From Catajapyx aquilonaris (Eukaryota), in the NCBI GenBank assembly GCA_000934665.2, contig KZ537984.1:124001-188000 (forward strand): a stretch of 64,000 nt of DNA, given 5' to 3'. This document shows positions 1,101 through 62,745 of the stretch, piece by piece. The position numbers were made by a program, and so were the translations under genes. Under the pieces are notes generated by a model that saw only the letters and a list, made by a program, of their open reading frames with translations, had not been told where the DNA came from and did not search any database. How positions within the stretch are numbered: the first letter of the stretch is position 1; each line of letters starts with the position of its first letter.

Positions 1101-3605
1101 CGATACGGGAGGGAGTCGGGAAGAATGTTCGATTGAATCCAGCCAGCGCTTCGATCCTTTCCTGTTGGACGCCCGGGACTTCATGAAGGAGAAGGAGCAG
1201 ACGGCCAGGTAGATAGCCCAGGGTGGGAAAAGGACATGCAGCAACAGAAGGCCGAAAGTAAAGCGCATGGTTCAGGCAGCATGTGATAATCAAAATAATT
1301 AATTATTAGAACGTACAACCATAATTTGCATGAATTCACACAGTGCAAGTACCACAATATTGTGTCTTTTCAGATCTGAACTTGTAAGACCACGTTGTAT
1401 CTTCAAGTTGAGCAAACGATGCGCGCCGACTGCTAAACCTTGGAGTCATCATGATTTTGTGGGGCGCTTGAAGACGTTCAGTCCGATTAACTGGCCTTAT
1501 AAGCGTGTATCGCCGATTGAGTGTGCGATGAGAGGATGGGTTATCTACGGGATGAACCGGATTACTTGCATTACCTGTAAGGGTCGCATCTACGGAGGGA
1601 TTATGGACACCAAGTACACAGACCTTTGTAAGAAGCTGCTGCAATGTTATGTTTAAAAATGGTTTTCAATTTTTACTTACTGGCTGTTCAATTTCAGATG
1701 AACAGTGGGTCCAGAAACTGCGATCTAATCTCCAAGAGCGGCATGAACTTTGCTGTCCATGGCGAGTGAACCCAACGAGGCTTGAGTTTGAGTATATCTT
1801 TGACCCAGGGAAGGTCCCGCAGTTAGGATTCATTAGAAGGCTCAAGAAGTTTTCACAAGTCAATATGCTTCCAGAGTTGTCAGAAGAATTCTTGGAGTCC
1901 ATCTCTGAAGATACGGAAACAATCAACTCAATTTCTTCCAGACTTGAGAGTGTTCCTGAAGAAAGGGTGGCTCTCATTCTTGCGTTATGTGGGTGGGAGG
2001 TTAAATCGGCAGACGTCCTGTGCTGTGGGATTTGCCTCAGAGATGTGTTCATTCGCACATTTGGTCAGACTGTGTCACGTGCGTCTACTCCATCACAGTC
2101 AGGGGCAGACGACTCATATCAGAACAATCTGACAGACAGTGATTTAGCAACAGACATTTCTACTAGTGTGTTAGAACCCAACACATCTGTGAACGAGGAA
2201 TCAGTGGGTGATGTGGGTGAGAGAAATGGCGATTGTGATATTGGTCACTTGGTAGCACAGTTGGAACTAAATGGCAAGGTCGCAGGCGACACCGAAAAAA
2301 TAAGTGAGGAAATTGTGGTAAATTCAGACACTGCTGAAATGGAAGTGCAATCAGAGTCCAATGAAGATAATCTTGGTGCCAAAACTGTTGATACCATTGA
2401 AATGAAAGACTCGCTGGCATGCAGCGAAAAAGACAGTCCAAGTGCAGGTGTGGTCCGCGAAGACCTAAAAATTGATCCAAAGTCTGAGGAGAGGGATGAG
2501 GCGGCTGATGTGATGGATACTGATATGACTGAAGAAAATACATGCAAGCAAGCTGATTCAGACTCAAATGCGACTGATTTGGAGCAGAAATTACGACCTG
2601 AGGTAGGTGAAGGCACCAAGATCAAGTCTGATGCGATGGACGCAGTGTCAAATGAAGAGGTAAACTCGCCTTCCAATAAGAAGGGCCACCAAGGTGAGGA
2701 TAAAGACATCTCGGTTGAACCAGACAAGAATGGTATCTCTTTGGATAAAAATGATGAGAATGTTACCGCTGAAGGAGACAGTACAAGTGATATCCCGTCT
2801 GAAGAGGTCAAGAAGAATGAAATTCCAGCTGAAGGGGACGAGAAGAATGCAATTCCAGCCGAAGACGATGATAAGAAAGGAATTTCTATTGATGAAGGCC
2901 TGCCAGCGGAAGAGAAGAGCTTACCAAATTCCAACTGCAAAAATGAGGCAGTGCAGTTGGAAGTTGATGCAAATGTGAATACCACAACAAGTGAGTTAGG
3001 TGAAGAGAAGTGCTCAGAAACTGGCATTTCAGAAGCTGAACCCAGTGAGGAGGCGCCAAAAAATGAGAAGAATGATGATACGATATTTGTGGCACCGAAA
3101 ATCGAGTGCCATGAATCTGATGTCCATAGTGAAGCTGACACTGTAGAAAACACCTTTTTAGCTGACGACATGGAGGCCGAAACGTCGTCCGTGGTAGCGC
3201 CTTCCACTGAACCGAATTCTCCAAACACTTCCTTCCTGATTCCACCAGATCCAAACGCTGCGTCGAAGAAAAGACGTAGATCCACGAGCATAATTCAGAT
3301 GAAGAAGTTCCGACCGTCTTCATTCCACCCTCTCAACAGCCACCGATTCTGGTGTCCATGGGCAGCACCGAACGACATCGTGAAGCACATGTCCAACACC
3401 AAACTTCCCGGATGGAAACTCTACATGTCCAACATCAACAACAACCTCATCAGAAGTCCAGACACCATCAGATTATGCCACAGCTCCACATATGTAAGTA
3501 TGGAACACATTAATGTACGAGTAGTTGCTAACATCAATTTCTTTCTAGTCGACAGCGGAAGACGGACTGCGAAGGATACGCCGCGTCCTTGGAAAGTGCC
3601 TCTAG
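1093..3605 (+). CDS. ZC3HC1: ZC3HC1/NIPA-like C3HC zinc-finger protein, ~740 aa
   Basis: Exons 1093-1208, 1374-1627, 1698-3493, 3549-3605 (2223 nt, in frame, all GT-AG). First module: PWSHHDFVGRLKTF...SPIECAMRGW...CITC...HELCCPW. Second module: LALCGW...CGICLRD...FHPLNSHRFWCPW, split by a long acidic insert. Basic NLS-like KKRRRS; AATAAA at 3682. Confidence 0.88.
2810..2898 (+). repeat. Degenerate ~30-bp coding tandem repeat in the ZC3HC1 acidic insert
   Basis: Peptide units KKNEIPAEGDE / KNAIPAEDDD / KKGISIDEG; DNA units AAGAATGAAATTCCAGCTGAAG / AAGAATGCAATTCCAGCCGAAG. Confidence 0.6.
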
Positions 3606-3809
3606 CAGTCTACCGCAACAACTCGCCAACGAAAGCCTATTTTTATGTGTACAAGATCCGCAATTTTTTTTAAAGTAACTCAATAAAATAATTGTCATTT
3701 TTTTTGTGGCAGGAACTCAACATCTAATAAAAGTAACAACTTTTCGAATGGAAGTAGCTGTTACGTTGCTTTCAGTCCATTGTTTACACGTTCCAGTTTT
3801 AGCAGCGAT

Positions 3810-3932: not shown

Positions 3933-6900
3933 ATGTCTGAGGAGGCCATCAGGCTGTTCCAGAGCGTGGGGCTGAGCGAGCAGAAGGCGAAGGAGACGGC
4001 CGTCAACACGAATCTGTCGAAGAACCTGACTCAGGCCATTGTGCAGGTGAGGAAATGGACATTTTTTTTGGTCACATGTTGCATCATGCAAGTCTTTTTC
4101 CAGCAGACCTTGACATTTTGAGAGATAACCTGTAGGGCATATGTTAATGATGTGTATTACACTGCCTATCATTTACAGAGCCAAGAGTATGGGCTGAAAC
4201 TGGATCCAAAACAAGGAGTCTTGCTCTACCAGATTGCGTCGAAGATCCGACCGCAAATTCAGAACCGGTTGCCCACGTTGGTGCAGTATGTCTGTACCGG
4301 TAAAATCGATGGGGAGATCCGTATGCAAGGTACACCGGAAAACAAACAGAAAAAAAATTAACATATAAATGATGTGTCATCAATTTGTTTCAGCTGCGTT
4401 GGACTACTTCATATCGCATATTAATCAAGATTTAAATATCAAGGAGTTTGAGGATGCGTGCGGTGTTGGAGTTATTGTTACTCCTGAAGATGTGGAGCAA
4501 GCTGTGGAGAAAGTTATTGCTAAGCATAAGGCTCAGCTGGTGGAGGAAAGATATGCTTTCAATGTTGGGCTGCTGATGCAGGAAGCACGGATGGCTCTGA
4601 AGTGGGCGGATGGGAAAGCTGTGAAGAATGAGGTGGATGTCCAGGTTTTGGATCTGCTTGGACCTAAGACCCTACAGGATTTGTCCGGGAAGGACAAGAA
4701 GGCCAAGAAAGCAAAGCCTGAGAAGAAGACAGTGCCTGAACAAAAAGCGGACGAATCGGATGGGGCTGCTACCATCGGTGAGCTTATGAAGAAACTTAAC
4801 TTTCACAGGCCAGGTGAAAACCACAAGTCGGATGGATACGTCATTACGCCAAACACACCTGACCTGCTTAAGGCCCATGTGAAACTAACTGGTGGGCAGG
4901 TACGCACTCGATTTCCACCCGAACCCAATGGAATTCTTCACATCGGTCATGCAAAGGCCATCAACATAAACTTTGGATATGCAGCTGCCAACAATGGTGT
5001 ATGCTTCTTGCGTTACGATGACACCAACCCAGAGAAGGAGGAGGAGAAGTACTTTACGGCCATTCGGGAAATGGTGGAGTGGCTTGGATACAAGCCCTAC
5101 AAAGTGACGCACTCATCAGATAATTTTGATCAGTTGTATCTGTGGGCAGTGGAACTCATTCGTAAAGGGATGGCATACGTTTGCCACCAGAAGTCTGAGG
5201 AGATCAAGGGATTCAATCCGCCACCATCACCTTGGAGGGACAGGCCCATTGAGGAGTCACTTACACTGTTTCGGGTGGGTTTTGTGTATGATGAAATTGT
5301 AATTTATAATAATACGTGCTTCAGCGTCTCTCGGGTTAACTGCCAAGTGGTCAAGCTCGACAATAAATATTGTCAGCAGTTACACAATTTTGTTTTGTAA
5401 CTTCACACATGCTTTTTTAACCCATAGGACATGAAGCATGGCAGGATATGGGAAGGTGAAGCCACCCTTCGGATGAAGGTAACTCTGGAAGAGGGAAAGC
5501 AAGATCCAGTTGCATACCGTATCAAGTTCACTCCTCACCACCGCAGTGGGGGCAAGTGGTGCATTTACCCTACTTATGACTACACGCATTGCCTCTGTGA
5601 TTCTATTGAGCACATCACCCACTCGCTTTGTACCAAGGAGTTCCAGAGCCGGTGAGTTCAGTAGATCCCAATTAGCCGTTGATTTTAAAAGTTCGCAGGA
5701 AGCAAATTTACATGAACATGAAAACATGTTCGCATAAAGCTTGTGACTGTTTTTACTATAATTTCATTATTATTTTCCAGTCGGTCTTCCTATTATTGGT
5801 TATGCAATGCTCTGGACATCTACTGCCCTGTCCAGTGGGAGTATGGACGTCTCAATGTCAACTATACTGTGGTGTCCAAGAGGAAGATAGCTAACCTGAT
5901 AACATCAAAAGTGGTGAATGACTGGGACGACCCCCGACTCTTTACCCTCACTGCCCTGAGGCGCAGGGGCTTCCCAGCTGAGGCCATCAACAACTTTTGT
6001 GCCCTGGTTGGCGTCACAGGAGCACAAGCAACTGTTGATCCACAGATGTTGGAGGCATGTGTTAGAGATGTACTTAACATCACTGCTCCAAGGTATGGAA
6101 AAGTTGTCACTATACAGCATGAATGTCAGAGTGCAGAATCGTCACTATGTTTTTGAGCGATATAGTACAGTATGTGCATTTGTAAGGTAAGCTTTAATGG
6201 CTACATTAATGTGATTGTGGCTTTTGTTTCTTTACAGAGCAATGGTAGTGTTGGAGCCACTCAAAGTAGTCATCACCGCAAACTTCCAAAGTGAAGGAGA
6301 TGTAATTTTGAATGTACCAAACTTTCCCAGCGACCCTGAGAAAGGAAGCCATACTGTGCCTTTGTCTCGTGTGCTGTACATTGAAGACAGTGATTTCAGA
6401 GAGGTATAGAGCCAAGTCTGAACAAAATAATAACCTTTTGGGGAACGCGATACAAAATTTTGGTTATTAGCCATTAACATTTGGGAAATTTTGTGTTGTT
6501 AGAAGTTTTCATAATATTACAACTGCAGTTGTTATAGTACTGTAAACTTACAGACACTAGATTTGTGCATGCTTTAAAATGCTTCCATAATAGACTACAT
6601 GCTTTCGGTTGCAGACTGGTGACAAGGGGTACAGACGCTTGACCCTGACCCAACCTGTGGGTTTGAAACATGCAAGCCTTCTCCTATCTGTGACCAAAGT
6701 GGTGAAAGATGCATCTGGAAAAGTTGATCACTTAGAAGCGACTTGCCATCCAATGAATGAAGGTCAAAAGCCAAAAGCCTTTATTCACTGGGTGTCACAT
6801 CCAACTGAAGTGGAAGTCAGGATGTATGATAGACTGTAAGTCAGTTTTAGTCATTTTAGTTGCGTCCTTTTTTTTCTGCAGGAATTTAGTAAGCTTTGTT

Positions 6901-23700: not shown

Positions 23701-26700
23701 GCATGCTTCAATCGCATGCATAGAGAATGAGCTTTCTAAGGGCTTCGAAGGACGACATGTTCGTACGTTGGGAAATAATATTTTCTCCTTCCATCCGACG
23801 TATCGATCTGAGAATTTTGGTGGGTTTCACCTGGCGCTGCATGTATGGCTTCGACAACAACCTTCCACGTCTCCTATATGCCTCATTGTGATATATCGGA
23901 TCAAACAGTTGGAGGAATTATTTATGGGAGTGGCCCGCCTAAGTGTGTCACGCCGAATCAAGTGTTGGATAACACCATCGACCTGTTGTTGGCTGGAAAG
24001 GTATCACACCGAGAGAATGGCAGCCCGGGTTAATTTATTTATGTATTTATTACAGGCAGGTTGAACGAAAGGGCGCGATAAGTGCTGTCTAAAGGCGTTT
24101 CGGAAAATTACTGTATATACCAATTGAAATGGCATGTGCTGATTGTGTAATGGCTGTACGGAGAGTTGCGTAGTCATGATCGAAAGGTTGGATTTTTGAA
24201 CTAAAGGTTAATAATCATGTTGCCTGTATCATAATTTGTAATGCAGCATTACAGGATGATGCGTATACCATTCATCCTTGCACGATGCAACCCAAATTAC
24301 ACGGACTTTGGCTGTCCTTTACTAATGCTGCCTTTCAAAGCACAATAGTACCAAGCTGGCTAGGCTTTCTAATTAAATCATGGCGGCTTTGGATTTTCGT
24401 CCGACATGTCAAGATGCTATATAAAGGGACTTTTATAGGAAGTTGCTCGTACACGGTTGGCTGCTCGTTACAATAAGGATTACCCTGTTTTTTTGCTCCG
24501 CTTCCTAGAAGTTACACAGTACCCTGACCAAATCTGTCCCTGTACGGTACAAAGGCTACACCCCAACTCCGACGCTGACTTGGCGACTTCAATTTCCTCT
24601 AATAGGGCTGAAGCCCAAATAGCGGGAACTGATGCAAGGTAATTGATATGGTATGACGAGAGGGGGGGAGAGACCGGCAGGTAGGTAACACGCGCTCTTT
24701 TTTTTTTGCCTTCCACATTTCTGCTTCAGTGGCTGCCTTTGTAGTGGTTGTTGGGGAGACTGGAATCTAGCCCTGAAAGGCTGCTGACTCACGCGACTAT
24801 TGATTGCTAATGAGAAGACTAGAAGCTAAAGGGAGCTTGTCTGGTGGGGGGGGGGGGAAGACCCATTGTTTGTTGTCCACTTTGGGCCTGCTGGTGCGTG
24901 TGTTCCGGACTCTTCCAACTTGTCTTATTATAGCCAGTTACAACAATCATTAAAACTTTTTCTCATGAAAAAGCTGTAGCTAGGTTGAACTACCTTGGTA
25001 TATACTGGCTGGTAACGAGGAGATTGGTTTGGCTGGGAACTGGTGGAAATCGACAATCTATTGTTGTACTGCCCACGTCCGCGCAGTCCCACAATAAGAG
25101 GCCACGTATTGTTTTTCTCTTGTCTGCGGATTTCTGACCATCATGTCAACCGAAGGTGTGGCCAGCTTGTGTTTGCCGATTAAATAATGTTAAAATTTCA
25201 GCTGTCGACTATGGACTTTGCCAACTGCAGAGATGTCCATTATTTCCTGTGCAACCTCTACAACACTTTTTGCGAGTTCAAATCGCACGAGTACATTGAG
25301 AACACCATGATCATGAAGGAACTGAAGGTCCGATTGGAGGCTCAGTCGATATACAACAGGGCTGTATGCAAATGCCACGAAGACAACAGGCTGTCAGAGG
25401 TAAACCCGAGAAAAAAAAATGTAAAAGTGGGACTGGATGCTAAGTTTTGCTTAATTGTATAGATATTAGAACTGGTGAAAGATGGGTACATGTGCACTGG
25501 AAAATCGGTCGACGAATGCATCAGTTATGGACGGAAGCTTCAGGAAGTACTTCAGGAATTTACCCGCACTTTCCTGCCTCACATGCAAGAAGAAGAGGAC
25601 ATATTTCAAGTAAGTTTAGCCGGTCTGGAGCGATTTTTTAATATTTTTCAGCAATTTGTGCATTCCAGCCTCTACTGATGCAGTACTTTGAGTACGAAGA
25701 GCTGAAGCACCTGAAGGAAATAGTGATCAAGGAGCATGAGGTGTGGAAAGAGAAGCTGCTCGATGGAAAGGAGAAGAGTTTGATTGAAGAGGAGAACCAA
25801 ACTGCAGAGAAGGATAATGCCTGCAGGTCGGAACAAAATGAAAATCGCAACGTGACGAGAGAGAAAGTTGATTTCAACGGAGATTCTCCAGAAGTGAAAA
25901 ACGACTTTGATAAATTGCCCTCGGAGGTGACATGCAAGATCTTCTCGTACCTGACTCCGCCGGATCGAGGGAGATGCGCGCGTGTTTGTCATAAGTGGAA
26001 CACTCTGGTTATGTCACCTTCACTCTGGATGAACCTCTATCCTTCACTGTGGGCGCGAGGCAAGTGTCGCATTACATTGGTTTCACATTCTTGTTCTAAT
26101 TTTAACGTTTTAGGAATCTGGTCTTTTGAACCTTATGACACGTTGCCGTTAATTGAAGAGGAGTCGAGTCTTCACTGTGGAAGCTGCAGTGTGTTAGACG
26201 ATGATGGAGATGTGGACGAATCAGAGGAGGCCTGTGATGATTGTGACGGTACAAACGACATCAGGAGGATAATGCTCCGGGAAATGCACATATTCAACTA
26301 GTACAGCACTTTTTACATTCAGACTTATTGTAAAACGTGCGTTGAAATTAAGTTACATAATTGCCTTTTTTTCTCTTACAGCTTCATTGAATTTTTGCTT
26401 CCAAAAGTTGGATTGGCCGTGAAAAAGTTGGTTCTTACTGGCAGCAAGGGATTGAAGGACCATCATTTGAGATCCATGCTAGAGATGTGCCCAAATTTGG
26501 AACAATTGGATCTGTGTTACACCATGGTGACTGATGGTGCTTTCAAAGGGTATGTGGCTGTTTAATAACTTACAGTGTACGGTGCAGTCGCAATAAAGAA
26601 TAACTTTGGTATTATCATTGTTAGGCTATCCAGCAAGTTGCTCTGCTTGAAATCACTGGACGTGTCAGGTTGCTCCAGACTGACAGATGTGTTTCTGCAG

Positions 26701-27114
26701 CGATTAGCAGTGGCCATCACTCCATGCCATAGCCAAGATGCAACATCTTGTCCCCAAGGTTCTGCAGAAACCGAATGTGCAGCAGAAAGAGGCCACTGCA
26801 ACTGCTGCAATCGCACACATTCCAACAGCCTGCATTACTTGAGCCTCTCTGGTTGTTCTTCAATCACAGACGAAGGTGTGCGAGGCTTAGTAAGTACTGT
26901 AGGAGTGATGAAACATCTGGTCCACTTGGATCTGAGTGGATGCTACAGGCTCAGCTCTGGAATTCTTCACGAACTTACGCGAAACTGCCCGAACCTGAAG
27001 CCTCAGAACTTGTATTACTGCACCTTGATTACTAAAGGTCCATTTGAGACTGAAGCTAATGGATGTCAGAATTTGCAATGCCCAATTAGGACTTGCTGCT
27101 GCTTGGGAGAGTGA
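20364..27114 (+). CDS. FBXL5: F-box/LRR-repeat protein 5, hemerythrin-domain iron/oxygen sensor, ~555 aa
   Basis: Exons 20364-20450, 25202-25399, 25463-25609, 25669-26059, 26114-26300, 26382-26549, 26625-27114 (1668 nt, in frame; intron 4 is GC-AG). Hemerythrin ligand segments: FPAEVDVFSVPHQRMK, EFKSHEYIEN, CHEDN, FLPHMQEEE. F-box LPSEVTCKIFSYL, LRRs, and C-terminal YYC...ANGCQNLQCPIRTCC. Confidence 0.95.
20719..20777. repeat. (TAA)n microsatellite, ~19 units, in FBXL5 intron 1
   Basis: Uninterrupted TAA run read directly. Confidence 0.95.
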
Positions 27115-28329: not shown

Positions 28330-31300
28330 TCATTTATTCACGTCCAAATCACAGGGTCGTCGGAAGACTTGCGGCGCTTCCCTGATCCACTTGTTACTCA
28401 CTGCAACAGAAACGTAAGAACAGGTTAGACTGCTACTAAACAGAATCTACATAATCTGAAGGGATGGATGTGTTTGGATGCTCACCCCACTTGTGTCCGT
28501 ATAGCACTGGACAGGCGCCATGCAGGGTGAGGACATCGGGTTGACCACTTTCTTTGAGGTTGTGCCAGAAGAGAGCCGAGCCCTTCCTTGGCCAAACAGA
28601 CAATCCGATGCGTGGGAATGCCGTGGCTCCTCCTTTGGAGACATCACTCAGCTGGGGAAATGTAATCCAAGTTGTAGTCTACATTCCATGATAACAATTA
28701 CAATTGATTGGTTGTCAAGGGCAAAACCATTAGCATGATTGCATACTCCAGCTAATTAACCCAGATATGCATAATTTTTTGGGTTTGATTTTTAATTAAT
28801 TTTCTATGTATGAGATAATGAAGACCTAGCACAATAAGTATCTAACATTGTACAAGTGTCCTATACAACATAGGACGCTAGGCATATCTGGGTTAAGGAT
28901 GATCAAAAATTGTTCCGAAAGAAAAATCATTCTCAAAACTATGAAAAGCAACTGGTTTTTACTATAAAAGGTTGCAAGGTTGTTACTCACGTAAATCATA
29001 AAGGTAGCGATTCTGTCTCCTATGAACAGGTCCTGCTGACTGATCCCTTTCATCTGGAATCAGATACGGAATGAATTATTTGCGTCAACAACCTTTTGTC
29101 AGGGGGCCACCGAGCTGCTTGGGGTCATATTTTGTGCATTCCCAGACGGTGATTATTATTACTGGGTGGGGTTTATGACTGTGCAAGATAACTCGAGCTA
29201 GTTTTACTGCGGGAGGGCCTGCAATTGAACCCAACCGCTCTCGCATTTGAAATTAATCGGCTTACCTGGGAAGCAGTTTTGTCTCGGAAAAGGTAATCAT
29301 GGTGGGGACTGAAATGGCCTCCAAGCCCGTAATTCACTACCTGCAATCAAGACAGTAAGTGGATAATGTCACCAGTCTTATCTTACCTTTTTCATATACT
29401 TTAGCGTGAAATCGTAGTGCAGGTTATAGTATTCGCCACTTGCATAGTTGACAATCTGCGAAAAGAAGAAAGAAGTGCTGCGGAAAAAAAGATGTGAATG
29501 GCTATTGTTTGCGCGTGCCGTAATGCAATTAGTGCCAATTGCAGAGAAAAGAACCAAAAGTGGGAGAAAAAAATGGATAAGAATATGTGCGATATAAACT
29601 CTCGTGCTTTCCTGCACCGGTGACCCGAATTATTGTGAAGTAATAAGCAATTGCCAGGAAATAACGTAATTGTGTCGAACAGTGTTATAAAGCCGAGCTA
29701 TAGCAGGCATATCAGCAGCACCAATCAAGAAGTAACAGTGAGCTATATTAATTTATAAAATAGCGGTATTATGCTGGCTGTTAAAGCGGGATAGTCGACC
29801 ACATTGTTCCGATCTCACCCATTTTTTAAAAAACCTCTGGAAAAATCTGGCGCACTCGTGCATCAACTTTTTCTAAAATCAAGAAAGAAATTATAGTGGT
29901 ATTTGCTTGGCACGTATTTTTTAAATCCGGTTTGAACATGCGGCTTACCAAATCTGATCTAATATATTTAAAAAGCAAGTTCGTGCACTGATGCAGTCTA
30001 TAAATATTGCTATTATATTGGGCGATGTCATGTTTGACGTAATGAGGAAATATAAGACAAAACATTGTGCTATCAGATCAGTGTCCAGTGTTTGAGGAAG
30101 TCATCCCAAGGCTACCTAATAACTTCCACGGTTACATGAGCCATGAACCTGGCTCTAATCTGATATAGGAGCCATCCGATGATTATACCCGTGCAAAAAA
30201 AATGGCAAGCTCGCTTAGCCTGGAAAAACGTGACCAAAAATTACGTCACGCGTCAAGCCACATTTTGAGTACTGTCACGGTTACATACCGGGCTAAGGTT
30301 TTTCCTGGATTGACATCGTCTGGATTCTTTGCAGGAGATGCACATGAATACTCCTTTTTTTCAGCCGTTTTATGCGCGTAAAAAAGCAGGGATATAGCCT
30401 TCCGAAATCCTTGAGCGACAATAATGAAAGTTGGTGGAGAATCACGAAGTGTGACGCTTCCGCTCCGAAATAAACAGAGGAGAAGCCAACGATGATTTTA
30501 AAAAAAAGCATGCATAGGTTGCATCTCTCTCTCACCTGGAGGTGCTCCGCCTCGTTTTGGTCCGTATCGGCCTTGAGACCAGTCAACCGAGACACCCGAT
30601 TGCTGATCTTCCTCACCAACGGGTCCATCTGGTCCGGGAGCCAAGAGGTTTTCGACACTCGAAGGTTCGACAGCTGGCTCTCTGATCCTCTCTGACCCTG
30701 AACCAGTGATCTCGACAGCTGAAAATTGGGGATCAATCACTTGCGAATTATTGAAATAATACACCTATACCCTTGGGTACTCTGATTCAGTCGACTGAGA
30801 GGAAATATTTCTTACGCCGCACCACTTGTGGCCCTGCCAGGCACGGTACGTCGCATTGCGTGATGATTTTAGTTAATTGCGAGCATCAGCGTGCTGGGCG
30901 TTTATTATGGGTTGTGCAATATAACAACACCTTATGCCATATATACGGAACAAGGAAGGCTTTAAAAAATCGCTCCATTTTGCAAATGCTAAATAGCAGC
31001 TCCTCCTAACAAGGCCTTCGCTATTATGCTGTTGTATTATTCAAAATTGCGCAGCGTGCCTGCCGTGCACAGAATAAAGTACCGTACCAAGGTCTGCGTA
31101 CTGACACCACCGGAAAAGGACATTCCGCTCCTTGTCACTTGCCCAGACTGCATTATTGCTTCTCAGTGACAAGAGTGCACGAAAGCTACTCTTTTTTTTG
31201 GAGGCAGCGAGTATAGAGAGAAGGTTGGGTAATTACCAAAGGCCTTGCGAGAGATATGAGCCTCTCGATTTCTGCCGAAGACACGACGTCGTGGAAGCTG

Positions 31301-34300
31301 TATATCGACGGAGTAAGCTGGTGTTGCTCCACCTTGACTGGGTGAAGGAGGTAGAACGGGTTACCTCTGCTGTCCACCCAACATCTCAGCTTGGCAGTGT
31401 ACCTGTCATCCTAAAGGACAAATCGAGAACCTGAGACCCTGGTGCCTTATGATAATATATACTACTACACCCGCGCGGCTTTTATAGCCCGACTGTATGT
31501 TTTATCGTAACCGATTGTATCACTTGCCCGCAGGTTTTCTCCTCTGCACAGGGCCGCAAAGTTTATGAGGTCTTCTTCTATGGACAGGTGAGGTCCAAGG
31601 CGATAAGGGTGCTCTTGGAAGGCGTGGCGACGTCGATCTCCTGACAGGTGCGATCGTAGAGGCTCGGTGTAAAGGTGTAAATGGCCATCACCTTTGCTTA
31701 ATTTGACATCGTGCTGGAGGAGATTAAACGAGGGAGATTCCGATCAGAACTTGGACAATAATTTTTAAAATTAACGAGCCGATTGCCTCGAGGGAAGCAA
31801 CAATGTCCTCACCCTGCGGATGGCACTATCCAGGAAATGGGCCACTTGATCTTGAGATACGCTGCCATTGACTTCATGACCTGCTAGGTCATACGCCTGT
31901 TCGAACCACTCGATAGCTCTGGTGTAAATACCAGCATTGTAGCAGTGCTTGCCCATAAACGTACAGTCTTGCGCCTTCAGTTCTGAAAAATCCACACAGT
32001 AAAATATTGCGAGAACTTGTCCACAACTTTGCACAGCATACAGTACACTTTCTCTCAACCCAATATGTGGTAGGTCTCCTTCCCATGTCGGGGTCCATAT
32101 AAAGGAGCCGCCCCTTTTGTGCATTGTTGTGCATTCCCGGGCTTCACAGGTGTAAACAACAACCGGACACGCCTTTTTGACAGCAGGCTGGATGATTAGG
32201 CGTGAATTCCTCTTCCAGAAGCCTGTTGCGCAAGGCAACTTAAAGCTTGTTTAGATCCCAACCCAACCCTCAACAATGGAGGCGTGAATCAAAAGAAGGC
32301 TGATGGCCTGCGAGTCTGAATTGAGATTTCTCAACTCGCACAGCAGGGGTTGCATCCTGTGAATAGAGCCGATGCAAGTACGTGACATCCGAGAGCAAGG
32401 GCAAATATCCTTCCAGTTTGTCTAACGGTACTACCTGGAGAGGATGATGGAGAAGAAGAGACCTGGCCTGCCGTTCCCATATAGCGGACCACAAGGTCAC
32501 ATATCGCAAATTGCAGGTGGGGTGCCAGATTAGAAATCGCCGCATGTGGAAATGAAGACAAAAGAAGTGAATGAAAAACTTTCACTTCGAATTCGTATAG
32601 TATACGCAGGGCGGATTAATTTAACCGTTGCTCATCATGAGAGCCGCCAAAAAGGGGTCCTTTGACATGTGGGGGCCACCACCTAAAGCCCTGAGGGTGT
32701 GTGGGTTTTTCTGTCAAATATGCAGGACAACATTAGCGGCTCGTATAATTTCATACTTTTCATAGCGGACGGTGTCAGGTGTGGTTAATGTCAATTCGAC
32801 ACTCTGTGTTGCCATCTCCAGGGACTAATCATGTTCACGCCCTGTGAATTACCATAACTTTGCACTTTTTTTTCGCCAACAAAATGTGCGGGTCACACTC
32901 GGGGGGTCGAGAATGGCCTTAATTTGAAATTCTAGCATTGTTGAGCCAATTAAGCTGTAATAGATAGCCTGCATGTGCCAGTACGTGACTGTCGGATTTG
33001 TTTTCCGTGTCAATTGGTAGCTGCATGCCCTGCAATTCAGTGCTTACCAGTGTTTGTCTGCACGTCCCAGATCGAACCTCTGGAAAGATCAGACACGTTT
33101 AGGTTGTATACGTCTTGCAGTCGGATTATGGCGTTGGCAGCTCCGTGCAAATCCTTTTCCTTAGGGAAGGTGAAGGAATGTCTCAGGTGGTCCAGACGGT
33201 CGTGTAATCCTGTGGGATTGAGGAAATACAATAATCCCATAAACACACTTTATTCCGTTATTGTGTTACTGGCATTATAGGCGATAATGATCTCGATATA
33301 CAATAAGGGAGGTTAACACAGCGATCATAACTGCAACGGGGCTTTTACGATTCTAAATCCTGTCATTAACGTTCTGATAGAGAGAGAGGAAAAAAATATC
33401 ATTGTGAAACGTGTGTATACCTTGAGACAGTTACCGGCATTCATTAGTTGCGAATTAAGTTTCACCCGCTTACGTATACGTCATTGCGAAAGTAATGCAC
33501 TGCAATTTGGCGAATCAAAATGTCATCATTTGCACGTAATAACTGAAAGGCGTTGCAATACATTACAAATGTAGGGTAAAGCATCGTGATGCTTGATGGA
33601 AAAACATGGGGGTGTGAAAACCTTCGATGCAAAAATCTGACTTTGCATGATAAAGTAATCCAAGTGGGATGACAGCACTTCAAACGTAACGTGTGTGTAC
33701 ACCATACGGTCATACCTAAACAATAAAAAATGAAAGCAAGGACCCCTCATAGTAAATTACTCCCTGTCATAAGGCACACGCTTCAAGAGATGCCATTTGG
33801 CATTTGAATATTTTCACATCTCAAAGTGCAAGGCGGCTGTTATGTCACGCCCTTGCAGTTATGCAAATGTTACATCACAGTTCTAATGCAGGCGGTGTCC
33901 TGTCCAAACCCACGCCACGGTTTCAGAATGAGATAAGAAGGTTGCTGGGAAGTGCAACTTACTTTTGTGACATTTTTGCCTGACAAAAGCCTGGATGTCA
34001 TTCCAGTACACTGTGAGCCTCTTGACTAGATGATACGCATGGAGAGGATTGTCCCTCACTTTTTCCAAGTACTGCTCTTCACTCTTGAACACTTCCTCTT
34101 CAATCAGTTCATATTCTTCCAGGTACCTGAAATAACCCAGTGTTAATCATTTTGTTGGCTCATTCAAGTTAATGTTGCACACCTCTGGAGTTTGGAGATG
34201 CTGCTGTCAACATTCCCGACATAATCGCGTAGAATGTCCAATATTTTTTTCTCCAGCGCAAAAAAGCTGCCGAGATCCGCCGAGGTCAGGAACAGGTCAC

Positions 34301-34352
34301 CGCCCGTACAGGCTGGCAATAATAGCGTCCCGAGCAGATACAACGGGAACAT
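28330..34352 (-). CDS. P4HA: Prolyl 4-hydroxylase alpha subunit, copy A (525 or 527 aa depending on the alternative exon)
   Basis: Exons 34352-34183, 34126-33963, 33209-33048, 31982-31813, 31713-31528 (GC donor), 31410-31237, 30718-30536, [29455-29387 or 29340-29266], 29053-28991, 28651-28486, 28400-28330; in frame with either alternative. Signal peptide MFPLYLLGTLLLPACTG, NPLHAYHLVKRLT, DLHGAANAIIRLQDVY, LCRGE, HxD, GDRIATFMIYLSDV..GGATAFP, TLHGACPV, KWVSNKW. An in-frame ATG at 34379 lies upstream of a good splice acceptor, so 34352 is preferred. Confidence 0.92.
29266..29340 (-). CDS. P4HA copy A alternative exon 8b (VVNYGLGGHFSPHHDYLFRDKTASQ)
   Basis: 75 nt, phase 0/0, acceptor TGATTGCAG and donor CAG|GTAAGC; intact H-H-D motif. 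Closest to the canonical V.NYG.GG.Y.PH.D. Confidence 0.85.
29387..29455 (-). CDS. P4HA copy A alternative exon 8a (IVNYASGEYYNLHYDFTLKYMKK)
   Basis: 69 nt, phase 0/0, strong acceptor TTCTTTCTTCTTTTTCGCAG and donor AAG|GTAAGA; intact H-Y-D motif. Confidence 0.72.
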
Positions 34353-42992: not shown

Positions 42993-44737
42993 CAAATGAT
43001 ACTGAAAGTGACAGTTATTTGCACAGTTTGCATATTTTTTAAATTAAAAACATTTTTTTGCTAATTTGTGCTAATTATTTTGTTTTCGTGAAGGACAATG
43101 TAAGTAATGTATAATGTGCTTAGCAGTTGAATAGTACTGGTGTTCCGAGCCTTTCATTGTTAGTCACAGTTGATAATGCTGAATTATTGTCTATTGAAGT
43201 GTATATTAAAGTACATAAATAATCAGGACATAATACGATTGCTGACGTTTGAATATAAAAATTCGTCACAATCCATAAGGAAACGCGCCAGGATTACACA
43301 TTGCAGATATTTTTGCCCTCTGCTGAAGTGTGCCATGTGAATACGCCGCCAAACACAAACATTTCCTGGAGTGAGATCATAGCTTATTAACTCTGATTCT
43401 CCATTTTTCTTGCATATAGCCAGAAATTTCCCAAGTGTTCCACCAGCGGTTTCCGCCAACTAGTTTCCACGATTGCGTCCACTTCCTCTTCCTTACCAAC
43501 AAAAACTTCACGCCCGCAACTTTTTGGGGGTGTCTCCCCCAAATAAACAAGTGGAATCGGCTTAAATTAATCGGAAGTGTATAAGTGTGTGTGTAGATGA
43601 GTGGCATGAAGAGCATGTTAGGGTGTGGGCATATGAAGGAGGTGTGTCCAGAGCAAGGCCGAGTGTGTTGAGTTGCGGTGGTGCCAGGAGGCGGAGGCAT
43701 AATACTGTTGGAAGCAGGCAAGCGATGGGATTGAGGCCAGTCGTTGGAGAGCACCACAAGGACCCTGTACCTCCACAGCAGCACCCAGTCTCAACTTGCA
43801 CTCCGGACAAACAAGTCCACTTGGCACACGGCTCTCACACACTTTGCCAGGTCAGTACTGTTTACATCAGGAAGTCACCCATTTGTTCATACAATTTCAA
43901 ATGCATGTTCTTTTTTTTGGGTATACAATCTGGAACGGAAGTTAAGGCACGATTTTTAGGCGGGACGACCCTGCCCGGTTCTAAAGGAACGTGCGAAATG
44001 TGGAACATGCTTTGTCCACATTCTGACCGTTGTTTCGGTCGACTGAGGATATAAAGACATCGTGTGCCAAAAAAAAATGTAGGAAAGTTAATGGCAGTGG
44101 ACAAGCACGAGACAGGTCGTAAAAAAATATAGGAACAATTTTTTAAAGTAGTTTCAGGGCGGCAGGCGTCAGGTCCATTTAGGAAACGAGATTGCTCGAG
44201 TTACGTGACCGTTGCTGACGACTCTTGCAAAATATCCTGGCATGCCGCGAGACACCGTATTGCACGACCAGTTTTTTTTTGTGAGGTGGGGCTGTAAAAT
44301 GATACACTGAACGAAAAAGGTTTTTCCAGCCATCAGTAACGTGTGATCAAAGAGGGACACGAGAACCTCCCATTTAGGAGGAGCTGAGGCCTTTTTTGAA
44401 GGTGTCTGTCGTGTTCTGGATCACGGTATGATGGGGATGGTGTAACGAACTCCCCCCTAGTTTTATCGGGACACTTTTGATTTCACTTTATTTTTTTGTA
44501 CTCGGTGAATTACTGCACTGGGCAACCTGTTAATTATTCACCCTTCGCACACTGCGTAAATGGCTTGTCGAAATCTATGCAGGTCGAGTCACGATAGTGT
44601 TAACTCTTTTGCGTAATGTCTGTCACGCATGCACGCTATCTGGGGAGGATCCTCCTTCATTCGATCGTTGAACTTTCTCTCTCATCAGAGCAGTAGTACC
44701 CGACACCTAGTTATATCGCTGTTTCTTGTTGCAGCAG

Positions 44738-46057
44738 ATGAGAAAGCCCAGGGTGAAGATGCCGTACCTGATACTCCTGTGCCTTCTGGTCGCGTGCCAG
44801 GCGGCCCCGCAGAAAGAGGTGACCAAGACATGTCCGGAGGGGTACGAACTGAGTGTGGACGAGGTGACTGGCAAGTACGACTGCGTCTGCCTGCCGTACC
44901 ACCTGTACTGGTCTGGTGACGGGTTGTGCTACCGGGAGTTCTCGCAAGGCCCGTGTCCTCCAGGGCATCGACTGGTGTACAACGACGCCACCGAGAAGGC
45001 CGATTGCCAGTGTCCTTCCTACTGGGCCAAGTGGAAGGACGGCGCATGCTACCAGGAGTACTCGAGAGGACCGTGCAGCGAAGGCGACCTGTTCATCGCG
45101 GATCTGAACACTGGAGAGGCCCAGTGCGTGTGCAACCGAAGCATGGTCATGCACTACCACGCACCCACGGACAAGTGCTACGAGCTGTACTCCCAAGGAC
45201 CGTGTCCGGATGGACACATTATCCGGTTCGACTACCGGTCCTTGTCCCCCGAGTGTACCTGCAGGGACGGACACGTCAAGTGGAGCGACGGCAAGTGCCA
45301 CCAGTTGAACACCCGTGGTCCGTGCCAGGAGGCTGAACACTGCCAGGACGGTACCATGTGCTTCGTACGTAGCCTCGAGTCCCTCCGTATCGGATGCCAG
45401 TGTCTGTACGGGGCTGCGGATGACCAGTGCCATCAGATGTACTCGAGGGGCAACTGCCAGTACGGCGAGTGGCTGACCCCAGGCGAGAACGGTACCGCAC
45501 CTTTGTGTCAGCCTAAGCCGCAGTGCCAGCGGTTCGACAACTGGTTCTACTGGGGACCGCACGAGAGGTGCTACAGGCAGTTCAGCAGAGGACCATGCGA
45601 GAAGGGACGTCTCTTCTACATGGATCCGTCCACTGGAGAAGCCGGGTGTCACTGCAGACCAGCGTGGAAGGCCTACTACTGGAGCCGTACCCAACAGTGC
45701 TTCGAGCAGGACTCGCGTGGTCCGTGCTCATCCGGACAGTACTTCTCGTTCAACTACACCTCGGGTGAAACCGAGTGCAACTGCTTCCGATCCTACGTGT
45801 TCAACCCGGACGACGGCACCTGCGTCGAGAAGTACACTCAAGGACCATGCGAGGAAGGTCAGCTGGCGGTCAGCCAGGAAGGCACGGGTCAGTTCAAATG
45901 CGACTGCGGTCAGCACCTTTCAGCGCACTACTGGGCAGACAACGGTAAATGCTACGAGCACCATCGACAAGGCCCGTGTCCGAGTGGTCAGCTGTTCAAG
46001 GTGGACGAAAATACCGGACGGCCCGCGTGCCTCAGCTGGCCTGCGGGCAAGAAGTAG
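44738..46057 (+). CDS. Secreted Cys-rich protein with nine tandem C-x6-G[PN]C modules (DUF4789-like), 439 aa, single coding exon
   Basis: ATG directly after a GCAGCAG acceptor. Signal-peptide-like MRKPRVKMPYLILLCLLVACQA; nine repeats of the form C.C...W....C[YHFV]....[QR]G[PN]C..G. Strong GC3 bias, AATAAA at 46311, probable upstream UTR-exon donor CAG|GTCAGT at 43850/43851. The DUF4789 label is from motif recall. Confidence 0.85.
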   Translation: MRKPRVKMPYLILLCLLVACQAAPQKEVTKTCPEGYELSVDEVTGKYDCVCLPYHLYWSGDGLCYREFSQGPCPPGHRLVYNDATEKADCQCPSYWAKWKDGACYQEYSRGPCSEGDLFIADLNTGEAQCVCNRSMVMHYHAPTDKCYELYSQGPCPDGHIIRFDYRSLSPECTCRDGHVKWSDGKCHQLNTRGPCQEAEHCQDGTMCFVRSLESLRIGCQCLYGAADDQCHQMYSRGNCQYGEWLTPGENGTAPLCQPKPQCQRFDNWFYWGPHERCYRQFSRGPCEKGRLFYMDPSTGEAGCHCRPAWKAYYWSRTQQCFEQDSRGPCSSGQYFSFNYTSGETECNCFRSYVFNPDDGTCVEKYTQGPCEEGQLAVSQEGTGQFKCDCGQHLSAHYWADNGKCYEHHRQGPCPSGQLFKVDENTGRPACLSWPAGKK

Positions 46058-51478: not shown

Positions 51479-54400
51479 ATGCTCTGCTCCTTGACATGTA
51501 TGAGTGTGGCAGCTGCCTTGATGTCCTTCGTGACCGCACAGGAAGCGGAACTATTCACGGATCATGAGGACCTCTTCTCTGCTACATCCAAACTGGAAGC
51601 CCTGGTCCAGAACGAGTTCCAGATAGTGGACATTCTGGACACATACCTGAAGCACACCCAGGAAAAAATTGATTCGATCAGGACGTAAGTGATGATGACA
51701 TGGGTGTGAATCTGGACGACCTTGCCATTTCTTAAGGACTGCAGATATGTCATATTTTGAGCAAACCGACTGCTTTAATAAATGTGGAGCACACGCGGTT
51801 TCTTACACATGAAAGAACAATATTTCTTCATGGGAGGTGCCGAGCCGAAACCGTGACCAAACGCGATGTGAACGCTTCTCCAGTTCTTCATTCAATAATA
51901 GGGTGCTTTTTACATGCTACTTGTTAGGCCTTGAAGTCAGGTAGATAAGTAAAGTGCAGTGGTGAGAGATGCTAAGCTGGAATATTTGCACGAGAACTTT
52001 CGCGGCTGTCGACGGACACAGACATGGTGAAGCAATATTTGCGCGCAAAAAAGGCCCATCGTGACATGCCCTCTTTTTTCGCATGGTTTAGGAGCGTTAA
52101 AATGTTATGTTGTGACAGCTTCCTGCAACTTGGCTGGCATTTTGTTTTATTTGCGCGGGTAAAATCAGGGCTCCTTTTATCTGGAGATGTGAACAAACAC
52201 GAGTGTTTTGAGAGAGAAAGTGTCTCTATCATCAGTAGGTGGTATATAGAAAATTCTCAAGGAGAGCAAGGGCAATATTGTGGTTTTGTGGCGTCACACG
52301 GTGTGGTACAAAAGGCACATCTATTTCCCTTAGTGGCTCCCATCCAAAAAAAAAGGACGAATTCTTTACGGTAAGGGAAAGTGATGTGCAGGTGACGAGA
52401 AAGCACCGTTAGAACATGCTTATTACGAGCACGGGGCAACACTTTACAGCTTGCTAATTAAAAATTGAAATGAGGAAGGAACGGAAATGTAATATGTAAC
52501 AGTATCGTTTTCACGTCCTACATTTTTAGTGCCTCGTGATACTCTCACTCTCTAGCTGAAATACTAAGGAAGAGTATTGTCTACATACTGTACAAGAACT
52601 GTCTCTGTCAAGGTTGATCGCAGGATCACTCCGCATTCCAAGAATAACAGTGTAATTAAGCAACATGCGTGTGAATATCGTGCGTCCTTATAGAGGTTTT
52701 GAAATTTCCTGCAGGTTTAGCGAAAGTAAACCAGAAGTGTGGTTATTTTCATCGTATTTCCAGGTTCGGTTGTTGCTCACTGTCCAAATGTCGTTGACAC
52801 TTGCACGTCAATTATTGCTCAAATTAGAGGGGCGAATAATTAGACGATCAGCTTCTGTTACTTTCTCCTAAGTGCATGGTCAGTGTGAAACCCATAGTTA
52901 GCGAAAGGCTGCCAACGCACATCATAACCCACTGACACGTTAGGGTAGCTCGAGCCTGGTTTTTCGAAGTAGCACAAGTGCACTTGGGTGCGAAAATTTT
53001 TCTGTAAAAAAAATTGCGTGATTTTAAGTTGCGGATGAACAATAGCAAGTAAACTAGAAAATCACAGAGAATCTTACACGTGGCTCGCATACCTCATGAG
53101 AATTGCAACACACAACGGGTGTGACAAATTTGCATGACAGTTGGTGTGACACGAGCATGATTTCCGCGTTTTAATTAATTTGGTATGATATAAACCGCCC
53201 CCTATTTCATGGATCCTCTCGAGTGTTTCGGGGGGTTCATTTTCATCTCGTCAGCTGAAGACCGCTCTTAGTATTGGCTCATTTTCGTTCTTGTTCAGTT
53301 GTGTAGCCTATAGTTTCACGCTTTCTCCGCTTGCTCGCCAGCCTGGAAAAATAGGGAGGAAGAATTAGGGTAGCAATACAGTGCGCTAATTCACACATAT
53401 TGGATACGTGCTCCAATATGTCACTGTCTTCATGGCCAACTTGTTTGCCAAATGGAGATAAATGCGTGTGCTAACCGTGGCACAAAACGCAATTTTCCAC
53501 TGCATTGTCCGCAATCGTTAAATTGTCATTTGAAAACGAAGGCCATAAATCAAACGTGATCAGACTTCAATTTTTCGTATCTAATTGGGTCATAAAATAT
53601 TGACAAGCAATTACTGCAACTAATTTTTAGCTCTAATGTTTCGTTGTTTGTTGCTTTAATTTATATCCAAAATATTGTACTTTCGGTGTGTCCAGTTCTT
53701 GCATGTGAAAATATGCATATTGCGTCAAAGCAGGCCAGCACATCTTACAGAGTATTATTATGCGGATCATATCACATACTTATGTTCGTGTCAAGCAGAC
53801 CGGATGGAAGAGTGAAGCAAAAGTACGACTCGAGTCTCTCTCCCCCATTTTTTGCGTCACGACTGTCGTGTTTGCATCAGCGGCCTTGTTGAAAGATCAA
53901 GCAAGTGGGATAAAGGTCATCCCTCCTTCCAGCCCCCTATTTTCTTATTATCTCAGTCATCTGGCCACTAATGATTACCACATCGATTATACAAGATATC
54001 AGAGACTGGAAGTCAGTCATTAACCCAACAACCTCCTGACGTCATGTTCTCATTTTTAGTAAGCTTCTGGTGCTAATAGCTTTCTTATTGTTTTCGCAGG
54101 TACATTGAAGATTATAGGTTCACAATGGCTGCCGGAAGAAGCTCGAAGGATCTGGTGGCCAATCCTGTTGATGCTTATGCGCTTCTCAGAAGACTTACCA
54201 TCGACTGGAGTGAGGTCGAATCGGCCTTAGCAGTGTCTGCAAATTACACCCAAGGTATGCGGGAAGTGGTCACCTTGATGAATACATATGCATCGTTAAG
54301 TGTACTTGATGCATCGTGTTTATTTGAAAGGGGCCGAGGGTGAAGGTAACAACGTTTAAGGAAACGATCTTTTGTTGACTCAACCACAGCTAAATGTTCT

Positions 54401-57400
54401 TACCTTTTTTATACACATTGTATTCATGTTGTAGTCTCATGGTATGTAACTGTAGGTGCTGGTACGTCCAATCTGTACGAGGGACAGACCAGATGTGGCA
54501 AGAGCTGATATCCGCGAAGTGTTGCAGACTATTCGAATTGATTACGAGAGACAACCGCTGTGAATGATACTCTGCCATTCCAGCACTGAAGTCACCACGA
54601 GGAAAAAGGAAAGTTTTTTGACGTGACATTAATCGCTGAGTGGCACTAATGGCACAAGTGCTATCGGCTAACAGTATGACAAGAATATTAAACTTGAGAG
54701 ATCTTATCCGATTGTATTATGCAGGAGATTCTATACACACATCAGGGTGTGACGAAACAGGATTTGCTATATTACTGTGAAAACATTTTACATCGGTATT
54801 TTTTCCCCTCGAACATACCATCGGACAAAAGGAGATTCGACATATCAGAAATGTTACACTTTCCCACTTTTAGTGTAAAGTCCCGACCAGCACACAAAAA
54901 AACAATCAAGTGCTGTAACTAGCCAAAAAATGTCACTCGCTCTTTGTCACACTATGCACCTATTTATACGTAATTGGCAGGATGTCTTCCACCGCAGTAG
55001 TAACGGTACTCGTCCTAGACAAAAACGAGGGAAAGGCTCAAGGAAGAGGAACTCGGAATGCGCGATTGTCATAGGCCACAACCCTTGCGAAGCGAGGGTT
55101 TCAGGTGACGTTTGATGCTCGAAAAAATAAATGCGAGCAACATGCTCACTCACATACAAGATAAACAATCGTTTCAAAATAGACAAAAATCAACGACGTT
55201 TGAACTATGGAAGTCAATTATTGGGTGCGGCACTCGCAAAGACCGCAAATGAGAGAGGTAAAGACAATGCATGTCCTACATTCAGGGATTAATGAGCGTG
55301 ACAACAGTCACATTGTGGGGTTTGACATGATTGGGCCAAAATTTGGAAGAATGATTGCTATACCTTTGAATTTCTTCCTTCAGATATTCTGAACTGGCTG
55401 GTGAACTTCCGCGAGAAGGCACATTTTCCGATGTTGGACGACCTGCATGGGGCTGCTCAGGCTCTGGTGCGCCTCCAGCATGCATACGACCTGGAAGTGT
55501 ACGCCCTGGCCGACGGTGCGCTCCAGGGGACATCATCGCACTCGGGTAATGAATAATGTAATATAATAATTATCAGCACGTGGGCATAAAACTAACAGAT
55601 TCAGACCGACTTCTATGGTAGGCTAAACTCCTCGGCACTATAGAGGTTCACTTTATGTAAATTATTTGGTTTCTGCTGTCACGATCTTCCGGTATGCCAA
55701 TAGCATTGTGGGGCATAAATATGCAGCAAGTATGAAGGAAAATTAGCTGTAAAAAGTTGCTGAGCATGTGTGTAAATGGGTGGATTAAGTAGCAGTCCCA
55801 CAGTAGGTGGTTGGCCTTCAAATTAATTAGCAGCAATCTTGTTGTTACTGATAACAGAGTGATAAATGACTCATTATTGGATAATATACTTTTTATGATT
55901 GGAGCACATTATATCAATGTCTCGTTATTCTCGAAAAGTTCGGGTCTGTTGTAAGTAAATGGCGAATTGGCAACTACTTTCTTTGATATTTTGTTACGTG
56001 TTAGCTGTCATGTAATGGTCCAATAATGGCTCATTTCTTAGAAAGAATATTGCAATGCAGATTGCCTTGACCCATTGCACCCAGTATAAATTCTAGCATG
56101 GTGATTAAACCATGTAGTGAAAGTTGGCAGAAGAGTAATTTGAAGGAGGATTTATTGAACCCTTTGCAGTATTCCGGAGCTTGCATGAGCTAAGTGCCCG
56201 CGACCTCCTCTTCCTTGGAAAGCACGCCTTCAGCTACGGATTTTACGATAAAACTCTGGAATGGCTAGGAGTTGCATTGACAAAGGCAGAGGAAGAAAGG
56301 AACGCCACGACTTCTCCAGAAGAAATTAGGCCCATACTACACACTGCCATGGAAATGGTTAGTAGCTTTAACTTATGCACCGTTAAAGGAAAATCATTGG
56401 ATCATCATTAAGTACACTTGGCATTTACGACTGCGACTCTACCGTTGTCTAATGATAGAGTCACAGCCTGTCACCACCACGCCTTGTAACCGTGACAAAT
56501 GTCCGTTGCTACTAATAAGGGCAATTTTTCTAATTTCTGGAACATCCTGTACATTATTATCCTGTTTATTCAACAGCATGATGACATCCTGGACAAGCAC
56601 GGTCCACGTGGAGTCAACTGGCAAACCAACTCGGTTCCTGTTGATCCAAGCCTAGCTCATAAGGCCAAATACTCATTTCATCTGGACTCACCTCCATTCC
56701 AACCTAAACTGTTTCAACAGCAAACAGAAGCAGAAGAAGTGGAACACTATTTCCGCCTATGTCGCGGAGAGAAATTAAGGGTGAGTTATATCATAACCTG
56801 TTCAAGATGCTAAATAGGAGAAACTGGTGCTCTTTTAGCCAACATATACTGTACGGAGTCAAAGTGACAAAGAGAAGACTAATGTTGGGAGGTGATGATT
56901 CTCACAGGGGGTGAACAGGAAGAGAGTCATACACTTTGTTTGGATTAGTTGTGTAACAGATTCCCCCTTTCTCTTTCGTGAATAAGATGCAACGAAAAGA
57001 CTATTACTTCAGCACAATCGTACTGCAAGAATGCCTATTAATTATGAGACAGAACGAAAGTCAATATTCACTTGATATACACTATTATTCACTCTGATAG
57101 ATCGTGATAAACTGACTGTTTGGTTATCTTTTCAGCCAGCAAAATTAGAAGCGCTTCTTCGCTGTCGGTACGCTACGAATGGAGCAAACAAACTGGAGCG
57201 GATAAAAATAGAAGAGCATTCTCACGATCCATTTATTGTCATGGTTCACGACCTAGTTACACCCAGACAAGCGGAGGCCGTCATCGAAACTGCACAACCA
57301 AGAGTAAGTATGAGCTTTCGAAATTCCATTATCGCAAAAAAAAATACAAAATATGACGGTACTGTACTTTCAGCTGTACCGATCGCGACATCGCCACGAG

Positions 57401-58137
57401 TTGGAAAATAACAAGGATGTAGTGAGTTCAAAACGAGTGAGCCAAAAGTACGAACACAAGGTGTTGAAAATAATAAGGAATCAAATATTAATTAAATCAA
57501 TTTTCCTATTAGTGCTTGGTTAACAGAAGAAGACACTCCTGCATTGTCCATAGTGACTAGAAATATCGAAAAAGTGACCGGCCTGAGGGCCAGTTATCCA
57601 CAAGAAGCTGAGGACTACCAGGTGACCAACTATGGAATCGGAGGCCTCTACGTGACCCACACTGACCACCTGATGTCCAACCCAGACCCTGATGCCTACT
57701 CGGAATGGGAACATTACGTCGGTGACAGGCTTGCCACAGTCATGGTCTATGTGAGTTATTAGACGATGATTGAAGGTGAAGGTGCGATCATTTTTCTTAT
57801 TTTTTTTTTCAAAGCTGTCAGATGTGGATGCAGGAGGAGCGACTGTGTTTCCGAGGGCAGGGGTGACCCTTTGGCCTCGAAAAGGATCGGCTGCATTTTG
57901 GTGGAATTTGTACCGTAATGGAGAAGGTGATGGAAACACCAGGCATGGAGCGTGTCCTGTTTTACACGGTTCCAAATGGGGTCGGTGCCAATTATTGCAT
58001 TGCAGGTGTGTCCTTTTTTGCACATACTGAATGACATTTTCTGCATTTCAGTGTCCAACAAGTGGATTCGATACAACGAACAGTACAAAAACGCACCATG
58101 CGGGCTTCATCCCTTGGACAAACATTCCCGACCTTGA
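51479..58137 (+). CDS. P4HA: Prolyl 4-hydroxylase alpha subunit, copy B, ~548 aa
   Basis: Exons 51479-51684, 54100-54254, 55384-55545, 56170-56357, 56577-56780, 57136-57303, 57374-57447, 57513-57750, 57815-57980, 58052-58137 (1647 nt, in frame). Signal peptide, NPVDAYALLRRLT, LCRGE, NYGIGGLYVTHTD, GDRLATVMVYLSDV, TRHGACPV, KWVSNKW. Probable UTR-exon donor CAG|GTAAGT near 51087. Confidence 0.93.

Positions 58138-61959: not shown

Positions 61960-62745
<786 letters not shown>

Follow-up and report, generated by a model that had tools for sequence, protein, structure and literature searches.

Collagen prolyl 4-hydroxylase (P4H) isoenzymes differ in the X-Pro-Gly sites that they hydroxylate, and vertebrates vary two substrate loops of these enzymes by means of alternative exons. 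The locus described here, in a stretch of 64,000 nucleotides from Catajapyx aquilonaris (hereafter “the window”), raises the question of whether the iron-binding strand of such an enzyme can itself be exchanged through splicing: a gene for a P4H alpha subunit contains two homologous versions of the exon that encodes the HxD strand. It can be asked whether the second version is truly a copy of the first, whether it has been kept as an exon, and whether a transcript would carry one of them or both. Our reading, to which we give an even chance of being right, is that an ancient tandem duplication of exon 8 in a collagen-type P4H alpha gene produced two alternative exons, that each mRNA would carry either 8a or 8b, and that 8b would give the canonical enzyme and 8a a second enzyme form.

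The gene in question (“gene A”) is modeled with 12 coding exons, 8a and 8b both counted, and the features that bear on the argument are the following:

28330..34352, reverse strand: gene A, collagen-type prolyl 4-hydroxylase alpha subunit, from ATG to stop (open-frame exon model)
30536..30718, reverse strand: exon 7, 183 nt, phase 0-0, C-terminal ...AEHLQ, donor GTGAGA at 30536
29456..30535, reverse strand: intron 7, 1080 nt, of which the 20 nt before the AG are the pyrimidine tract of exon 8a
29387..29455, reverse strand: exon 8a, 69 nt, 23 aa, the divergent copy, IVNYASGEYYNLHYDFTLKYMKK
29341..29386, reverse strand: the intron between 8a and 8b, 46 nt, donor GTAAGA, acceptor TTGCAG
29266..29340, reverse strand: exon 8b, 75 nt, 25 aa, the canonical copy (G-L-G-G-H-F, H-H-D), VVNYGLGGHFSPHHDYLFRDKTASQ
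28991..29053, reverse strand: exon 9, 63 nt, phase 0-0, containing GDRIATFMIY, MKGISQQDLFIGDRIATFMIY
28486..28651, reverse strand: exon 10, 166 nt, with the distal His (..TLHGACPV..) and the conserved Lys-Trp

The family assignment comes from several parts of the gene. Crustacean and chelicerate P4H-alpha proteins align along gene A from end to end (tblastn). The P4Ha_N dimerisation domain (Pfam PF08336) is found in exon 2 at 31.2 bits and in exon 3 at 45.1 bits, with a cut-off of 25.3. The exon 4 fragment, taken alone, matches the peptide-substrate-binding domain TPR_P4H (PF23558) with an E of 6.7e-5 at 23.4 bits (cut-off 27), and this TPR region is covered by the tblastn alignments of full-length relatives. 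Exon 10 by itself scores 16 bits for 2OG-FeII_Oxy_3 (PF13640; cut-off 27); used as a protein query it gave 3334 matches at E<=0.001, and the top full-length proteins among them carry the name P4H alpha and come from a spider, a centipede, a crayfish, an ostracod and a copepod. With these matches and the alignment of 8b to the structure 7zsc_A, a C-terminal 2-oxoglutarate/Fe(II) dioxygenase domain is present in gene A. Its iron triad is complete, with H-Y-D in 8a or H-H-D in 8b and the distal His in exon 10, which aligns with a column invariant among the relatives. Comparison of the whole gene placed one marine transcript protein and a crayfish protein at the top; relatives are no more than 73% identical to gene A even in exon 10, the best-conserved exon, and exon 7 as a protein query found no match in the protein collections. 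By themselves these matches would place the source among the arthropods, probably the crustaceans.

Apart from the 46-nt intron, the introns of gene A measure 56, 753, 1065, 99, 117, 518, 1080, 212, 339, and 85 nt. All junctions are GT-AG with one exception, a GC-AG intron after exon 5; the donor of exon 5 reads CGG/GCAAGT (31522-31531, reverse strand), and a GT donor that would keep the frame is absent. Exon 7 is predicted to be the upstream constitutive exon whose donor is joined to 8a or 8b, and exon 9 the predicted downstream constitutive exon.

The window holds two further P4H-alpha genes and several unrelated ones, the latter recognized by Pfam searches on long open frames:

1556-3673, forward strand: NuBaID/zf-C3HC protein
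4369-5400, forward strand: glutaminyl-tRNA synthetase
25642-27114, forward strand: F-box plus LRR protein, convergent with gene A
44711-46057, forward strand: protein carrying eight DUF4789 repeats, located in GC-rich sequence
54086-58113, forward strand: gene B, P4H-alpha paralog, HxD strand single
58976-61330, forward strand: gene C, P4H-alpha paralog, HxD strand single
62275-62745, forward strand: GNAT acetyltransferase

Genes B and C stand in tandem, and their HxD strand lies in a larger exon that is fused with the neighboring exons; three short introns in the two genes measure 64, 66, and 64 nt. Gene B is similar to the crustacean P4H alphas of the “..GGLYVTHTD..” group.

Between exons 7 and 9 of gene A, both 8a and 8b are phase-0 exons of a length divisible by three with flanks AG and GTAAG, both have GT-AG sites, and both encode the motif N-Y...G...H-x-D. 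A first-pass annotation of this DNA had described two homologous phase-0 exons here with intact splice sites and HxD, 46 nt apart, and the coordinates, lengths, sequences, and spacing that we find are the same. Every combination of the two would stay in frame: the predicted product of gene A is 525 aa long if 8a is used, 527 aa if 8b is used, 550 aa if the two are joined, and 502 aa if both are skipped.

Is the likeness between 8a and 8b real, or might 8a be a chance open frame within intron 7, with no exon duplication behind it? By general measures 8a is hard to recognize. Against a family profile built from 53 strands, 8b reaches 49.5 bits, whereas 8a stops at 6.4 bits with an E of 0.98 over the 2749 ORFs of the window, which is what a chance frame would show; 8b matches 7zsc_A (human P4HA2) in the PDB with an E of 0.021, and 8a matched no chain there at E<=10. 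It is therefore recognizable solely in register with 8b and from its genomic context. That comparison took in every open phase-0 frame of 60-90 nt lying between an AG and a GT, 1740 in all over the two strands of the window, and each was scored from its first residue in register with 8b. Exon 8a scores 39 (z 5.6); the only scores above this belong to 8b itself and to the true HxD segment of paralog C, and the best of the 1736 other frames reaches 9. Added to this, 8a shares strand, phase, and first aligned residue with the adjoining 8b, and BLASTP of 8a against 8b, as a single comparison, gives an E of 2e-5. A chance origin was rejected on the test with splice-bounded frames (39 against 9), and we regard it as hardly credible; judged from their sequences, 8a and 8b are true tandem duplicates, as the first-pass annotation had proposed.

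The duplication is an old one by the same kind of evidence. Identity between 8a and 8b is 14/23 at first, 11/23 at second, and 4/23 at third codon positions, so that first and second positions together (25/46) differ from third positions with a Fisher p of 0.004. Third positions agree no more often than at random and have been randomized, while first and second positions were kept, which points to an old duplication.

What the two exons would exchange can be read from the alignment of 8b with 7zsc_A, which places exon 8 over the catalytic loop and the HxD strand. For the human enzyme C-P4H-II, PMC9676403 gives the iron triad as His430, Asp432, and His501, the βII-βIII substrate loop as Arg435-Gly448, and Tyr427 (Tyr140 in the algal Cr-P4H) as touching the proline to be hydroxylated. 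On this alignment the swap would exchange the entire catalytic (βI-βII) loop together with the HxD strand and the initial segment of the substrate loop, the last of these being two residues shorter in 8a than in 8b; exon 8 carries two of the three iron ligands. The substrate-contacting column holds Tyr in 91% of 53 relatives; 8a has this Tyr and 8b has Phe (the Phe codon of 8b lies at 29311-29313 and the matching Tyr codon of 8a at 29426-29428, both on the reverse strand). The 8a product would thus be a second predicted enzyme that retains the iron ligands and the substrate-contacting Tyr. It could also be inactive, since two highly conserved glycines are changed in 8a: these residues, conserved at 96% and 98% in the family, are replaced by Ala and Glu.

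Relatives were searched for a counterpart of 8a. In all 243 proteins of relatives with a recognizable strand, that strand is no closer to 8a than it is to 8b, the nearest relatives being at most 73% identical in exon 10. The best 150 representatives include 69 proteins that are 150 aa or longer, and in none of these do two strands lie less than 200 aa apart; in a second protein set one of 116 has close strands, an Ixodes model with near-identical copies 57 aa apart. This model (Ixodes scapularis, P0222, residues 541-630) could reflect either a recent tandem duplication or an artefact of assembly or modeling. Clusters of decapod, copepod, and second-Daphnia-paralog sequences, transcript assemblies included, have an invariable HxD exon, and none of 27 loci in metagenome contigs, among them one spliced transcript, one genomic fragment, and one trio of insect-type tandem genes, has a tandem HxD strand. 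With the 41-aa in-frame stretch of the window that contains 8a, no protein sharing three 5-residue words was found, a weak negative because the same search missed true orthologs when exon 7 was used.

Two other readings accept the duplication. The more serious of them, which we consider unlikely though clearly the stronger rival, holds that 8a is a relic, either an alternative exon that was once functional or a copy long protected by chance, which is now never or negligibly spliced, with the gene making the 8b enzyme only. The chance-level profile score, the missing PDB match, the loss of the two near-invariant loop glycines, and the lack of an 8a-like strand in all 243 relatives and in the word search would all fit such a relic. 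Against it, 8a aligns with 8b over 23 codons free of indels and with an open frame, and it retains six of the eight columns conserved at 85% or more in the 53 family strands (N, Y, G, Y, H, D). Its splice signals are intact from the AG to the GTAAG: the pyrimidine tract, with C or T at 17 of 20 positions, is the joint-best of the 12 exons (0.8% of the AGs on the strand reach it), and the donor, agreeing with consensus at 7 of 8 positions, is likewise joint-best (0.3% of the GTs on the strand reach it). In a neutral simulation of 200,000 runs tuned to the observed divergence at first and second positions, at least six of the eight columns were kept in 0.16% of runs, with the caveat that four of the eight are fixed by the pattern that picked the 53 strands; AG and GT both survived in 8.6% and the open frame in 43%, and the three features came together in 0.005% of runs, so that a long-neutral copy this divergent should have lost these features. 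Third positions speak less clearly, as a neutral 8a would be expected to show an identity of 0.36 there against the observed 4/23, a rejection that is marginal (p 0.04) and leaves the relic some room. The retained residues and the joint-best splice signals suggest that selection kept 8a as an exon: it looks like a maintained exon bearing marks of purifying selection, and the evidence argues against drift ever since the duplication. Use of 8a may nevertheless have been lost recently, which is compatible with the neutral test.

The remaining reading, that the 46-nt intron is spliced and that 8a is a cassette joined with 8b always or sometimes, giving the 550-aa product in which 23 additional residues precede the catalytic loop, turns on what could keep the two exons apart, and we think it improbable. 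The first-pass annotation had proposed steric exclusion through a short distance from donor to branch point. Its candidate branch adenosines, 18 and 31 nt from the 8a donor, are present (in GTGAC and CTTAC, respectively); its value of 54 nt for the shortest other modeled intron was not recovered, the shortest other one that we measured being 56 nt. At 46 nt the intron is still the shortest of the 14 measured in gene A and its paralogs (the 13 others span 56-1080 nt), which counts against joint inclusion and is at most suggestive of exclusion. The length is, however, within the range that insects splice. The criterion of a donor-to-branch distance below 50 nt is human-derived (PMC5740500); Drosophila splices introns of 40-50 nt, only more slowly (PMC5762160), and introns of 40 nt in Drosophila bcd and of 35 nt in Tribolium have been validated (PMC4675715), which makes the steric argument weak for an arthropod and means that nothing observed here prevents the joint inclusion of 8a and 8b. 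The intron has a consensus donor, an AG, and a branch-like CTTAC 15 nt from the acceptor; moreover, the NCBI models of the Daphnia ortholog include a form with both alternative exons. Nonsense-mediated decay is excluded as the enforcing mechanism because joint inclusion stays in frame, as had been anticipated.

Pairing between RNA segments offered no better handle: two adjoining imperfect inverted repeats, 71-75% complementary, lie at 28927-28967 (intron 9) and 29389-29443 (exon 8a). The pairing of 8a with intron 9 is no better than that of a shuffled exon (z -0.37), and that of 8a with the intron between 8b and exon 9 reaches a best z of -2.2, with 1 of 60 shuffles as good, which is not convincing. 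The protein, too, speaks against joint inclusion. A second N-Y...H-x-D in the core of the double-stranded β-helix would probably disturb folding, and strands less than 200 aa apart are confined, in the two protein sets above, to the single Ixodes model. We keep to the reading in which each mRNA would carry 8a or 8b, and in which the use of 8a, its mutual exclusivity with 8b, and any functional difference between the products, such as one in O2, iron, or substrate kinetics, are things we infer from the DNA.

Among known systems, a set of C. elegans genes offers a parallel for the exon arrangement. In that species, the five mutually exclusive clusters whose introns are too short to be spliced all have exon lengths divisible by three (PMC4165533), and egl-15, let-2, bet-2, gly-5, and gly-6 share with gene A both this property and a very short intervening intron (PMC4165533). 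Their introns, however, are of 14-30 nt or below the worm minimum of ~40 nt (PMC4165533), whereas the 46 nt of gene A are within the insect-spliced range.

A nearer comparison is found in Daphnia. The orthologs of D. pulex (XP_046438572-76), D. magna (XP_032786907-13), and D. carinata (XP_057374182-83) have, within the catalytic domain, two tandem homologous alternative exons that encode 21 and 23 aa; the length of each, like that of 8a and 8b, is divisible by 3 nt. They belong to the same ortholog group as gene A (...PHHDYL.K.K...), and the borders of the HxD exon are identical. The arrangement is the reverse, however: in Daphnia the next exon, equivalent to exon 9 of the window, is double and the HxD exon single, and a second copy of exon 9 in the Daphnia style is absent from gene A. 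The Daphnia copies are also far more alike than 8a and 8b. Transcript-derived entries carry each alternative exon alone (P0288; P0285), and the NCBI models of the pair include forms with both, either, or neither exon. The 23-aa copy is identical across D. pulex, D. magna, and D. carinata (the Daphnia entries consulted are P0271, P0273, P0168, P0272, P0283, P0284, P0276, P0280, P0282, P0169, P0285, and P0288).

Vertebrate P4H genes provide the third comparison. The first-pass annotation had described the alternative exons of P4HA1 and P4HA2 as encoding segments next to the HxD exon and not that exon itself. This holds for P4HA1, whose pair lies upstream of the HxD exon and swaps a part without an iron ligand; exons 12a/12b of the human P4HA2 gene correspond to exon 9 of the window. 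Like 12a and 12b of P4HA2 (C-P4H-II), 8a and 8b would change the start and length of a substrate loop. Exons 9/10 (9a/9b) of P4HA1 (C-P4H-I) are a textbook mutually exclusive homologous pair (PMC11868403); PMC8373072 counts the pair as a tandem exon duplication substitution and mentions reports of equivalent exons from a nematode. The affected part is an active-site substrate loop as well, namely the hairpin loop. PMC9676403 likewise has splice variants of human C-P4H-I and C-P4H-II altering the two substrate loops. The open-access literature searched describes no P4H in which the HxD exon has alternatives.

Taken together, the human variants and the Daphnia pair show that exons around the active site of P4H enzymes have been duplicated more than once. 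A pair that swaps the βI-βII loop together with the HxD strand would be a natural experiment on P4H specificity and turnover, one in which the share of the loop, with its Tyr/Phe position in contact with the target proline, could be weighed, and it would add to the small set of enzymes in which an active-site strand is exchanged through splicing. Somewhat more tentatively than for the exon arrangement itself, we propose that gene A switches the catalytic loop and two of the three iron ligands between two ancient exon copies between which the family consensus has been split, 8b having the glycine-rich loop with Phe, and 8a having Tyr with a loop stiffened by Ala and Glu. If this is true, exon duplication would be a recurrent route to tuning the specificity of collagen hydroxylation, and gene A would represent one more case in which alternative exons around the active site of a P4H arose independently, beside the pairs of P4HA1 and P4HA2 and the exon 9 pairs of Daphnia.
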